This document shows, piece after piece, positions 46,596-49,244 of a DNA stretch of 64,000 bases; within the stretch, counting starts at the first letter, position 1, and each line of letters begins with the position of its first letter. Source of the DNA: an uncultured Tenacibaculum sp. (GTDB lineage: Bacteria; Bacteroidota; Bacteroidia; Flavobacteriales; Flavobacteriaceae); NCBI GenBank assembly GCA_947497895.1, contig CANMIL010000014.1, positions 27,308 to 91,307 on the forward strand, in the 5' to 3' direction. The position numbers and the translations under genes were made by a program. The notes under the pieces are model-generated. The model was not told the origin of the DNA, made no database searches, and worked only from the letters and a program-made list of their open reading frames with translations.

Positions 46596-46628
46596 AAAAA
46601 AAGAGAAGTTTTAACTTCTCTTTTTTTA
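46596..46628. terminator. Bidirectional terminator between convergent genes
   Basis: A7-GAGAAG...CTTCTC-T8, at the boundary of ltaE (plus strand) and the membrane-partner gene (minus strand). Confidence 0.65.
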
Positions 46629-47279
46629 TGTTGCCTCTTCTAGTTTGACGAGTTCTTTATAATTGTTATTTAGTTTATTCAATAATCTACCGTAGATAAG
46701 TTTATAGAAGCCCCAAAGTAACAAGAACATGATTAGTATTGCGATAGAAAAACTTATCATTAAAGAGGTAACAAAAGCATCTTTGTTTAAAGGAACTTCG
46801 ATACCATGCGTATTATAATATTCTAACAATAAATCTACATCATTAAAAAGTAGGGATATGAAAATTATATTAATTGTAATGGCAAATATTAGATTAAAAT
46901 ATACGTAATACTTAACAACTTTTCTAGTGCTCAGTATTTTTTGTATTAGTGTTTTAGTATTGTCGGAAATTGAAATTGATTTATAGTTTTTGTAAAACAA
47001 AATTAAAAAGACAGTAATAACAATATAATGAAGATAAACACTTGAGTAAACAAAAGTTTCAACATGAAGAGTTTCATATAATTCAATATATGAACTTCCT
47101 ACAAAAGAAAGATTTAATCCCGCCCAAAATAACAATTCTAAAATACCAATTATAAAAATCCATTTTACAATTGAAGAAGATTTCGAGCGTGACATTTTAT
47201 AAATATCTGCTTTCGAAACTTTATTAGTCTCTTCAGGTTGCTTATCCCAAGCTTTTTTATATTTATCTAATGCATCCAT
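46626..47279 (-). CDS. Sigma-factor-associated membrane protein (putative anti-sigma), copy 1
   Basis: 217 aa. It starts 7 nt downstream of the ECF sigma gene stop. It has a charged N-terminal segment of about 35 aa and then at least four TM helices. No zinc-finger anti-sigma motif is present. The role is inferred from position. Confidence 0.5.
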   Translation of the reverse strand: MDALDKYKKAWDKQPEETNKVSKADIYKMSRSKSSSIVKWIFIIGILELLFWAGLNLSFVGSSYIELYETLHVETFVYSSVYLHYIVITVFLILFYKNYKSISISDNTKTLIQKILSTRKVVKYYVYFNLIFAITINIIFISLLFNDVDLLLEYYNTHGIEVPLNKDAFVTSLMISFSIAILIMFLLLWGFYKLIYGRLLNKLNNNYKELVKLEEAT

Positions 47280-47837
47280 AGATTTCTTACGGGGTCAATA
47301 TTTTTTTTAATTTATCTTTAGCTCTGTTCATTTTCACTCTAGCATTTACTTCACTAATTCCTAATGTACTAGAAATTTCCTTATAAGGTTTGTCTTCTAA
47401 ATACAAAAAGATAAGAGCTTTATCAATATCATTTAACTTATGAATAGCTTTATATAATTGTTTTAACTGTTGTTCTTCAGTATCGTCATAATCATGAGAT
47501 TGTATTTTAAATGCAATCTCACTAATGTCTTGAGTTTTTACAGCTCTGGTTGATTTTCTATATAAAGAAATGGCTGTATTTAAAGCTACTCTATACATCC
47601 ATGTGCTAAACTTAGCATCACCTCTGAACTTGCTGTAATTTTTCCATAGCTGTATTGTTATTTCTTGAAACAAATCATTGTGAGCGTCAGCGTTTGTAGT
47701 GTAAATTCTACAAACTTTGTGCACAATATTTTGATTGTTTTCAAAATCAGCTAAAAATTTATTTTCAAGTTCCTTCTGCACTAAGTTCGGTTAAGTTTTG
47801 ATGTTTATAGGTAGTCCAAAAATATAAAACGTTACAT
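47135..47837. repeat. Tandem direct duplication, unit 1 (sigma gene, its leader, and the 5' end of the partner gene)
   Basis: Collinear without indels with 48508-49210 at an offset of 1373 bp. In the 495-nt sigma CDS I counted 26 substitutions by manual alignment. Confidence 0.85.
47287..47781 (-). CDS. ECF-subfamily RNA polymerase sigma-70 factor, copy 1
   Basis: 164 aa with a GTG start. Region 2 is DLFQEITIQLWKNYSKFRGDAKFSTWMYRVALNTAISLYR. The region 4 HTH is YKEISSTLGISEVNARVKMNRAK. Confidence 0.9.
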   Translation of the reverse strand: MQKELENKFLADFENNQNIVHKVCRIYTTNADAHNDLFQEITIQLWKNYSKFRGDAKFSTWMYRVALNTAISLYRKSTRAVKTQDISEIAFKIQSHDYDDTEEQQLKQLYKAIHKLNDIDKALIFLYLEDKPYKEISSTLGISEVNARVKMNRAKDKLKKILTP

Positions 47838-48046
47838 CATAACAATGTGTTTTTTTATTTTTTTTGACCATAGCTGTGCGCTATACTTTGATTTAAACAT
47901 CTTTCCGTAAAATAGAAAGACATTTAAAATCTTAATAAAAGTAAATAAGAGATTTTACATAATCTAAAGCCATTCGAATAGTAGAGGGCTTTCTATAAAA
48001 TAGTGAAATAGATTTATTATAAATTTTAGTTATAAAATAACACTAC

Positions 48047-48652
48047 TTATTTTTCTAATTGTTTTAAGTTTCTATAGTTTTTATTAAGCTTTTTTAAGAG
48101 AATTCCATAAAGTAATTGATATATCAACCAAATAATACCAATTAAAAGTGTACAAACAATTATCGAAATAATTATAAAAAACACCAGTTTTGTACCTTCG
48201 AATTCTGGGTGAGATTGTACTGTGGAAATAATAGCAACAAGAAATAATACACAGGCATAACCGAGGTTGGTTAGAATATAGTATTTAACGGTTTTTCTGG
48301 TTTTTAGTATTTTACTCATTAACTCTGATGTCGAGTCGGTAGTTTTAATATTCTTATAATTTTTGTAGAAAAAGAATATAAAAATTAAAAGTATGGGATA
48401 CATGATTATTTGAGAATACATCACAAAGTTTTCCATACCAAATTCTTTGTAACTTTTATAAAGTTGGTCGAAATCCCAAAAAAAGAAAGCACTGAAAGGC
48501 AAGAAAAATTCTAAAATACCAATTATAAAAATCCACTTTACAATTGAAGAAGATTTCGAACGTGACATTTTATAAATATCTTCTTTAGAAACTTTATTCA
48601 CCTCTTCAGGTTGCTTATCCCAAGCTTTTTTATATTTATCTAATCCATCCAT
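48047..48652 (-). CDS. Sigma-factor-associated membrane protein (putative anti-sigma), copy 2
   Basis: 201 aa. The first 49 aa differ from copy 1 at only 3 positions. The rest is much more diverged but still homologous (YKNYK, VKYY and LLxKLNxNY motifs retained). Confidence 0.5.
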   Translation of the reverse strand: MDGLDKYKKAWDKQPEEVNKVSKEDIYKMSRSKSSSIVKWIFIIGILEFFLPFSAFFFWDFDQLYKSYKEFGMENFVMYSQIIMYPILLIFIFFFYKNYKNIKTTDSTSELMSKILKTRKTVKYYILTNLGYACVLFLVAIISTVQSHPEFEGTKLVFFIIISIIVCTLLIGIIWLIYQLLYGILLKKLNKNYRNLKQLEK

Positions 48653-49210
48653 AGATTTCTTACGGGGTCAATATTTTTTTTAATTTATCTTTAGCTCTGT
48701 TCATTTTTACTCTAGCATTTACTTCACTAATTCCTAGAGTACTTGAAATTTCCTTATAGGGTTTATCTTCCAAATACAAAAAGATAAGAGCTTTATCAAT
48801 GTCGTTTAACTTATGAATAGCTTTATACAATTGTTTTAACTGTTGTTCTTCAGTATCATCATAATCGTGAGATTGTATTTTAAAAGCAATCGCACTAATA
48901 TCTTGAGTTTTTACGGCTCTGGTTGATTTTCTATATAATGAAATAGCCGTATTTAAAGCCACTCTATACATCCATGTACTAAACTTAGCATCACCTCTAA
49001 ACTTGCTGTAATTTTTCCATAACTGTATTGTTATTTCTTGAAACAAGTCATTGTGAGCGTCGGCGTTTGTAGTGTAAATTCTACAAACTTTGTGCACAAT
49101 ATTTTGATTGTTTTCAAAATCAGCCAAAAATTTATTTTCAAGTTCCTTCTGCACTAAGTTCGGTTAAGTTTCGATGTTTATAGGTAGTTCAAAAAGGGAA
49201 AACGTTACAC
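48508..49210. repeat. Tandem direct duplication, unit 2
   Basis: See unit 1 (47135-47837). Confidence 0.85.
48660..49154 (-). CDS. ECF-subfamily RNA polymerase sigma-70 factor, copy 2
   Basis: 164 aa with a GTG start. It is identical to copy 1 except one residue (DISAIAF versus DISEIAF). Confidence 0.9.
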   Translation of the reverse strand: MQKELENKFLADFENNQNIVHKVCRIYTTNADAHNDLFQEITIQLWKNYSKFRGDAKFSTWMYRVALNTAISLYRKSTRAVKTQDISAIAFKIQSHDYDDTEEQQLKQLYKAIHKLNDIDKALIFLYLEDKPYKEISSTLGISEVNARVKMNRAKDKLKKILTP

Positions 49211-49244
49211 TTTATTGGTACACTTTTTTCATTTTTCATGATAG

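Follow-up and report, generated by a model that had tools for sequence, protein, structure and literature searches.

Concerted evolution of a tandem ECF sigma operon carrying two old, alternative membrane-partner bodies in Tenacibaculum

How can two adjacent operons encode practically the same sigma factor and yet membrane partners that differ over most of their length? The question is raised by a locus in an uncultured Tenacibaculum sp. (Flavobacteriaceae; GenBank assembly GCA_947497895.1, contig CANMIL010000014.1), at which two consecutive units, each comprising a gene for an extracytoplasmic function (ECF) sigma factor followed by a gene for a membrane partner, lie on the minus strand; coordinates refer to the window, which is the whole stretch of 64,000 nucleotides (nt) that was analysed. 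Pairs of ECF sigma and anti-sigma factors represent the third major mode of bacterial signalling, and how evolution connects new inputs with an output already in place is an open question, one on which this locus gives a direct view. Here we present evidence for the overall explanation that we consider best and hold to be probable, namely that a core sigma operon was captured as a tandem of two alternative partner types, S and L, and that gene conversion together with selection has since maintained the module common to both. Throughout, G000 denotes the genome under study, G290 its sister species Tenacibaculum xiamenense and G211 a single-copy relative serving as outgroup.

In the list of open reading frames (ORFs), unit B lies upstream of unit A, and in both units the partner ATG is found 10 nt past the sigma stop codon. 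The genes, the repeated tract and the partner segments beyond it are as follows.

48660..49154, minus strand: ECF sigma gene copy B, the upstream copy, 164 amino acids (aa), GTG start (ORF; Pfam; TIGR02937)
48047..48652, minus strand: membrane partner B, 201 aa, S-type cassette (ORF; S clade in the cassette tree)
47287..47781, minus strand: ECF sigma gene copy A, the downstream copy, 164 aa, GTG start (ORF; Pfam)
46626..47279, minus strand: membrane partner A, 217 aa, L-type cassette, four predicted membrane helices (ORF; AlphaFold2; L clade)
48503..49214, minus strand: homogenised tract, copy B, comprising promoter/leader, sigma B and partner codons 1-48 (identity profile, site patterns, approximately unbiased (AU) tests)
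47130..47841, minus strand: homogenised tract, copy A (identity profile, site patterns, AU tests)
48050..48505, minus strand: S cassette, partner B codons 50-201, the membrane/outer-loop part with conserved cytoplasmic loop and tail
46629..47132, minus strand: L cassette, partner A codons 50-217, in which the outer loop has an additional helix of ~13-16 aa

An identity profile resolves a direct repeat of ~710 bp at an offset of 1373 (~47130-47841 against ~48503-49214), in agreement with the 1373-bp period that a first-pass annotation of this DNA had assigned to two units. The repeat consists of ~60 nt 5' of the GTG, the entire sigma gene and partner codons 1-48 or 49, and its copies differ at 43 of 709 positions. 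An assembly artefact in which a single unit was wrongly duplicated had been named as a possible source of the arrangement, and G000 is a draft of 5.0 Mb in 130 contigs; with that many differences between the repeats, differing cassette bodies, a mid-contig position and the same tandem in the independent T. xiamenense assembly, such an origin is so improbable as to be practically negligible.

Within the repeat, 26 of 495 nt distinguish the two sigma genes, which align without indels. Twenty-three of these differences fall at third codon positions and 25 are synonymous, the single replacement, E87A, lying in the linker that joins regions 2 and 4. By the Nei-Gojobori method the proportion of synonymous differences (pS) is 0.27, the synonymous and nonsynonymous divergences (dS and dN) are 0.34 and 0.0025, and dN/dS is ~0.007, with silent changes in excess of the neutral expectation (binomial p = 1.2e-17). 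Both sigma copies are therefore under very strong purifying selection, as the first-pass annotation had proposed; its manual count (26 differences, no indels, about 25 silent, one E/A residue) is reproduced exactly, and the formal dN/dS calculation that it recommended returned one nonsynonymous difference and not the many that would have told against its view. Its figure of about 5% synonymous divergence has to be corrected, as 5.3% is the divergence over all nucleotides and that at synonymous sites is 27%.

The sister species offers a means of separating selection from exchange between the copies. In G290 the tandem recurs with its units in identical order and with partner lengths of 201 and 217 aa, and the two species are 81-86% identical in the region. 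The two units from each genome were aligned and informative sites were classed according to whether they group the units by species, by orthology or in the third possible pattern.

Tract (-60 to +652 from the sigma start): species 27, orthology 4, third pattern 4
Partner codon 50 to end: species 6, orthology 119, third pattern 5
Far upstream: species 1, orthology 24, third pattern 2

Grouping by species in the tract is significant (binomial p = 1.4e-7) and extends to protein level, where K8N, A31P, I88V and S95A are between-species differences present in both paralogs of each species. When states were polarised with G211, 12 derived states were found to be common to the G000 copies and 12 to the G290 copies, against one and three shared by type. 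The maximum-likelihood tree of the tract pairs paralogs within species (support 95/98 and 97/97), and pairing by orthology fails the AU tests there (p = 0.0003 and 0.002). Because the tract groups by species while the partner bodies group by orthology, homogenisation is placed after speciation, and these site patterns indicate that the repeat has been homogenised by gene conversion in both lineages since the species split. The phylogeny and synteny of the paralogs in relatives, which had been suggested as a check, thus reveal the same tandem in G290 and a tract that evolves in concert.

A single old tandem duplication shaped by differential selection only, with the sigma and anchor frozen and the sensor free, would be compatible with a dN/dS of ~0.007 and with differences that are spread evenly and leave no long identical runs. 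We nevertheless regard it as very improbable, given that silent and non-coding sites of the tract also group by species (27 vs 4 and 4), that four amino-acid changes are common to both paralogs within each species, that the orthology topology is rejected by AU tests, and that the S and L bodies are far older than the species pair. In addition, paralog dS (0.34 in G000, 0.48 in G290) is about one third of species-level dS, which for flanking genes ranges from 0.9 to 1.8. Gene conversion on top of selection accounts for these patterns, and its last episode is not recent, because differences are evenly spread in the tract and the longest identical run is not above chance (p = 0.60, 0.14). The first-pass annotation had set selection against a very recent duplication or ongoing conversion; its exclusion of very recent events holds, whereas its exclusion of conversion does not, the repeat having been homogenised since speciation. 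Divergence after conversion is almost purely silent because of purifying selection on the sigma.

How the tandem was assembled can be read in part from its flanks and from the junction between its units.

47782..48046, minus strand: junction between the units (comparison with G290 and folding)

Copy B is preceded by the ancestral upstream flank, of which 333 nt align to G211 at 82% identity, and copy A is followed by the ancestral downstream flank. The last ~81 nt of the junction (47782-47862) are a second copy of the sequence, with the promoter, that ancestrally preceded the sigma, such that the repeated unit spans ~-81 to the partner stop codon. The remaining ~184 nt have no match in the sequences compared, and their G290 counterpart is only ~76 nt long; the junction as a whole is 108 nt longer in G000 than in G290 (265 vs 157 nt; L038). 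These unequal spacers might suggest that the tandem arose, or that its repeated portion was re-duplicated, independently in each species, and separate young duplications would likewise group the sigma copies by species without conversion. Both species, however, have S upstream and L downstream with orthologous bodies, junction sequence that is partly common to both and the same duplicated leader of ~81 nt, while far-upstream and junction-proximal sequence groups by orthology (24 vs 1 species-wise); two events of identical architecture would be unparsimonious, and there is little to recommend this origin over one tandem inherited by both species and homogenised thereafter.

The bodies of the two partners belong to a dimorphism that spans the genus. 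In an alignment of partners from 57 genus loci, S types are ~201-206 aa long and L types, which have an extra outer-loop segment, ~210-218 aa. A tree of the sequence past residue ~50 shows a clean division between 31 S and 26 L partners (Shimodaira-Hasegawa-like approximate likelihood ratio test support 98), with partner A in L and partner B in S. On the addition of 28 partners from other genera, S, L and outgroup form three clans joined at one node, which places the S-L separation in the genus stem. A search of the genus with the L body found 243 genomes with a match, of which ~45% are L and ~55% S as read from the score and coverage split of the matches and not from retrieved sequences; both types occur only in G000 and G290. 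Extra partner matches in G218 and G221 are contig-end fragments of fragmented assemblies and were rejected as tandems.

Cassette type is scattered on the sigma tree, changing 16 times over 55 tips compared with a shuffled mean of 18.4. In three genome pairs the flanks are 90-100% identical and the partner body is only 40-60% identical over ~450 nt, one genome carrying S and the other L; this low-identity block runs from partner codon ~50 to just short of the conserved tail. S and L are hence alternative cassettes for one slot, because S-only genomes have the downstream flank, including a hairpin described below, directly 3' of the S gene, exactly as it is found after copy A. The sequence boundary at 47135/48508 is the left edge of this slot. 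The first-pass annotation had located the end of similarity at about this position, correctly, and had taken it to be where a conserved segment stops; it is not simply the point at which constraint ends but the genus-wide edge of a replaceable cassette, because the same break is seen between near-identical genomes with different cassettes. No extra ORF or signal gene was found inside the cassette, the variable block being restricted to the partner gene. Between G000 and G290 orthologs both bodies are conserved (omega ~0.05; the partner B ortholog is 81% identical), indicating that both cassettes are constrained and that neither is decaying. Named species with S and named species with L do not overlap, with the exception of the tandem-bearing T. 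xiamenense, in searches of one genome per species. Within the L type, several well-supported sub-clades (loci L011, L018, L037, L057, L014 and others) are shuffled relative to the sigma tree, and the number of exchangeable cassette variants may exceed two.

Two histories could have produced this distribution. We favour cassette exchange, whereby recombination between conserved arms would replace one body with the other and a rare unequal event would add a cassette beside the resident one. Alternatively, the tandem could be ancestral to the genus, nearly all species having lost one unit and G000 and G290 being the last to keep both. Such a history is in keeping with the joining of S, L and the outgroup genera at one node, which puts the S/L split in the genus stem, and recombination between the repeated modules or between the conserved tails could cleanly delete either unit. 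Against it, the type must have changed no fewer than 16 times over 55 tips, in some cases between genomes whose flanks are 96-100% identical, and many lineages would therefore have had to retain the tandem until almost today, although only 2 of 244 genomes show it. L sub-clades are, moreover, shuffled relative to the sigma tree. Given the rarity of the tandem and the near-identity of genomes that differ in type, we judge an ancestral tandem unlikely and prefer exchange. A more far-reaching proposal, which we advance only tentatively, is that S and L represent an old, recombination-shuffled sensor polymorphism of a core ECF pathway, with ~450-bp cassettes swapping between homology arms, the tandem being a captured 'heterozygote' kept by selection and conversion keeping both sensors compatible with one sigma.

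The sigma factor around which these exchanges take place consists of regions 2 and 4 only (Pfam Sigma70_r2 1e-15, r4_2 2e-10) and scores 92.2 bits against the ECF superfamily model TIGR02937, for which the cut-off is 42.9. No equivalog model reached its cut-off that would place it in a named ECF subfamily, and the text of Casas-Pastor et al. 2021 (PMC7826278) contains no description matching its ECF group. The locus holds the only two copies in the genome, the next ECF sigma in G000 being only 41% identical. Across the genus the gene is present in 244 of 267 genomes and is single copy in all but G000 and G290. A wider sample of the family yielded it, at 69-77% identity and in single copy, in 260 of 300 genomes and 230 of 266 genera, and no tandem was found among those 300; G382 and G512 each gave a second match, to a distant paralog of 50-52% identity located elsewhere in the genome, and were discounted as tandems. 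An exact look-up of the sigma in public assemblies gave no match. This distribution indicates that it is a core, near-universal single-copy ECF sigma gene of Flavobacteriaceae. Conservation across the family is unusually high for an ECF sigma, and the sigma/partner pair seems to be unstudied. Within the genus, a convergent threonine-aldolase-like gene usually adjoins the locus.

The partner is as constant a companion as the sigma is conserved, its ORF lying 5-14 nt 3' of the sigma in 58/58 genus loci and in 28/28 loci from other genera. Partners A and B are homologous over their full length (45% identity, E = 6e-54), and the conservation between them is unevenly distributed, as the following counts of identical residues illustrate.

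Cytoplasmic N-terminus: 35/38
First membrane/outer-loop block: 8/46
Middle cytoplasmic loop: 18/29
Second membrane/outer-loop block: 13/66
C-terminal tail: 14/27

All parts conserved between S and L are cytoplasmic and the membrane and outer parts are not, a result with which a comparison of consensus sequences agrees. Residues 1-48 of the two partners differ by three substitutions (A3G, T18V, A24E), the number given by the first-pass annotation for a segment of 49 aa; the segment is in fact 48 aa long, residue 49 already being different (L/F). The predicted topology of partner A comprises four membrane helices with tiny outer loops and a cytoplasmic N-terminus, middle loop and C-terminal tail. 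Its AlphaFold2 model (predicted local distance difference test score 81, predicted template modelling score 0.73) contains a short N-terminal helix, a long helix passing from cytoplasm to membrane (23-58), three more membrane helices, a pair of short helices on the outer side (63-70 and 148-157, of which the latter lies in the L-specific insert) and a long C-terminal helix. UniRef labels partners P0004, P0012, P0025, P0138 and P0174 as 'Beta-carotene 15,15'-monooxygenase', which has no family support and looks like a propagated misannotation.

From this arrangement we infer that the partner is a membrane anti-sigma factor, the cytoplasmic face of which would hold the sigma while the membrane and outer part would sense. 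With little cytoplasmic sequence ahead of its first membrane helix, the partner resembles the short class II anti-sigma factors such as CnrY, in which a short cytoplasmic peptide at the N-terminus binds across sigma regions 2 and 4; its 38-aa cytoplasmic N-terminus and its topology fit that class. Class I factors are marked by an anti-sigma domain of ~80-90 aa at the N-terminus that can be recognised from sequence and often contains a zinc-binding HxxxCxxC. These hallmarks are lacking, in that only 38 cytoplasmic residues precede the first helix, without a Cys/His motif, and by sequence the partner falls into none of the anti-sigma classes described. If the partner were instead a co-expressed effector or a positive regulator, there would be no two-input switch; the lack of any anti-sigma domain, family or structural match and the shortness of the cytoplasmic N-terminus (only 38 residues) would be in line with such a role. 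Nevertheless, the invariable position of the partner directly behind the sigma in all loci examined, in genus and family, the confinement of conservation to its cytoplasmic segments and the likeness of its topology to that of short class II factors such as CnrY make a role other than anti-sigma unlikely. Among 55 sequences, cassette type shows no association with any alignment position in the sigma or the partner N-terminus, which fits an anti-sigma arrangement in which one sigma specificity can be wired to either sensor.

Regulatory sequence around the sigma genes provides a further line of evidence on what the tandem may control and how it is transcribed.

49180..49209, minus strand: putative ECF-type promoter B, TGTAAC-N16-CTACCTAT, with its end 25 nt short of the GTG (motif conserved genus-wide)
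47807..47836, minus strand: putative ECF-type promoter A, the same two boxes, 25 nt before the GTG (motif conserved genus-wide)
46596..46627, no strand: hairpin after partner A, flanked by A and U runs (folding)

The motif TGTAAC-N16-C[TG]AC[CT][TA]AT is a conserved feature of the sequence ahead of this sigma throughout the genus, and it precedes both copies, in the form CTAC(C/T)TAT. A regulon scan of the genome with a 41-nt matrix returned only the two own promoters, and simple regular expressions for the boxes produced mostly coding-region noise. A two-box matrix gave two candidates, kept solely because their boxes are conserved upstream of orthologs. One is a gene for a 336-aa multi-pass membrane protein on contig C2 at ~27,300 (L070), with TGTAAC-N16-C(T/A)AC..AT ~30 nt upstream; its boxes are kept in three other species (L074-L076), even where the surrounding sequence no longer aligns. 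The other, on contig C10 at ~152,190 (L069), encodes an 82-aa basic tail-anchored protein preceded by TGTAAC-N16-CGACTAAT, with boxes conserved in two relatives (L071, L072). Both loci have the same boxes as the sigma, with variable spacers, and a family search placed neither product in a family. We consider the two genes to be candidate members of the regulon. A 90-aa protein of similar build is encoded just ahead of the 82-aa gene on C10.

The hairpin is a perfect 17-bp stem (-19.1 kcal/mol, z = -8.2) between the convergent partner A and threonine-aldolase-like genes and is probably a bidirectional terminator shared by the two. A simple terminator scan of the locus reported nothing and missed this hairpin; no terminator-like fold was found after partner B or in the junction, where the fold z-score is ~0. 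Because a strong hairpin follows partner A only, transcripts from the upstream promoter probably cross both units. The leader 5' of each GTG (47782-47800 and 49155-49173) contains a direct repeat, AACTTA-N4-AACTTA. By eye, relatives with a neighbouring DUF2141/LytS-kinase operon have similar leaders, and the leaders of those without it differ.

Taken together, these observations are best explained by the following course of events. A core, normally single-copy operon encodes an ECF sigma and then a four-helix inner-membrane partner, probably its anti-sigma. Promoter, sigma gene and partner residues 1-48 form a 'handle', with the S or L body situated between this handle and a conserved cytoplasmic tail. 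The common ancestor of G000 and T. xiamenense probably gained both bodies as a tandem, [sigmaB-S][sigmaA-L], the ~710-bp handle of which has since been homogenised between the copies by gene conversion in each lineage after the split, conversion ending where S and L are too different to pair. Since the last conversion the copies have diverged by ~6%, nearly all of it silent, with selection keeping both cassettes. Each partner would hold the shared sigma at the membrane via its cytoplasmic N-terminus, probably aided by the conserved loop and tail, and would let it go in response to its own membrane or envelope cue. It is plausible that two sensors act on one sigma, as the first-pass annotation had inferred, with cross-sequestration as a possibility, and the outcome would be an OR-type two-input circuit with cross-buffering, in which either signal would raise the whole tandem and one common regulon, because both promoters carry the same boxes and no terminator lies between the units.

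Several points weigh against this explanation. Concerted evolution rests on one tandem-bearing species pair and outgroups, and four sites of the tract (-41, -17, 351 and 418) group by type, so that conversion may have been patchy or some changes parallel. The timing is rough: between species, sigma dS is 0.55-0.76, below that of the flanking genes, and the silent sites of the sigma may be constrained or the sigma may move between species. Binding of the sigma by the partner is proposed from position and conservation only; neither partner has a Pfam or NCBIfam family or a recognised anti-sigma domain, and a Foldseek comparison of the partner model with the PDB found no structural relative (best E = 0.48). 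Residues 1-30 of partner A have low confidence in the AlphaFold2 model, as may be expected for a segment that folds on a partner. The regulon, finally, depends on motif conservation at two loci.

The genus represents an unusually clean natural experiment, in which one output module is joined, over ~240 species, to one or the other of two old sensor bodies. A single lineage possesses both, and there gene conversion would keep the shared module interchangeable. Flavobacteriaceae include fish pathogens and abundant marine degraders, in which the sigma/partner pair is near-universal, and the pair can be put to the test through its conserved promoter motif and the two candidate targets. Literature searches for Tenacibaculum ECF or anti-sigma work, or for conversion among ECF paralogs, yielded nothing relevant, and in the literature searched we found no description of the combination proposed here, that is, two ancient interchangeable sensor bodies, their tandem capture and conversion confined to the output module.

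Its individual elements have parallels in known systems. Like the ECF sigma factors with membrane anti-sigma factors typified by SigW-RsiW of B. subtilis and CnrH-CnrY of Cupriavidus, the locus combines a two-domain sigma with a membrane protein encoded directly downstream, the latter with a cytoplasmic N-terminus before its first membrane helix, and a putative sigma promoter with an AAC-containing -35 box, which suggests autoregulation of the sigma. Unlike in those systems, the partner is without a zinc-binding or other recognised anti-sigma domain and has four helices with tiny outer loops, and the sigma is a single-copy gene 69-77% identical across a family; the 38-aa cytoplasmic N-terminus is equally short in CnrY-type factors, a likeness in size and topology. 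Sharp-edged sensor polymorphism is well known for agr and comQXP, and conversion between paralogs for tuf genes and rRNA operons. As in agr of staphylococci and the comQXP pherotypes of Bacillus, the sensor variants described here are discrete and deep, have sharp borders and are incongruent with the phylogeny of their flanks; they differ in having no co-varying signal-peptide gene, in belonging to a sigma/partner pair rather than a histidine kinase, and in that the S and L types look fixed per named species in the lists compared. As in tufA/tufB of enterobacteria and in rRNA operons, paralogs within a genome are closer than orthologs, flanks are orthologous and silent drift proceeds under selection. 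In contrast to those cases, the converted tract is only part of a signalling module and ends inside a gene, at the edge of the sensor, and the shared output would therefore be preserved while the two inputs are left distinct.

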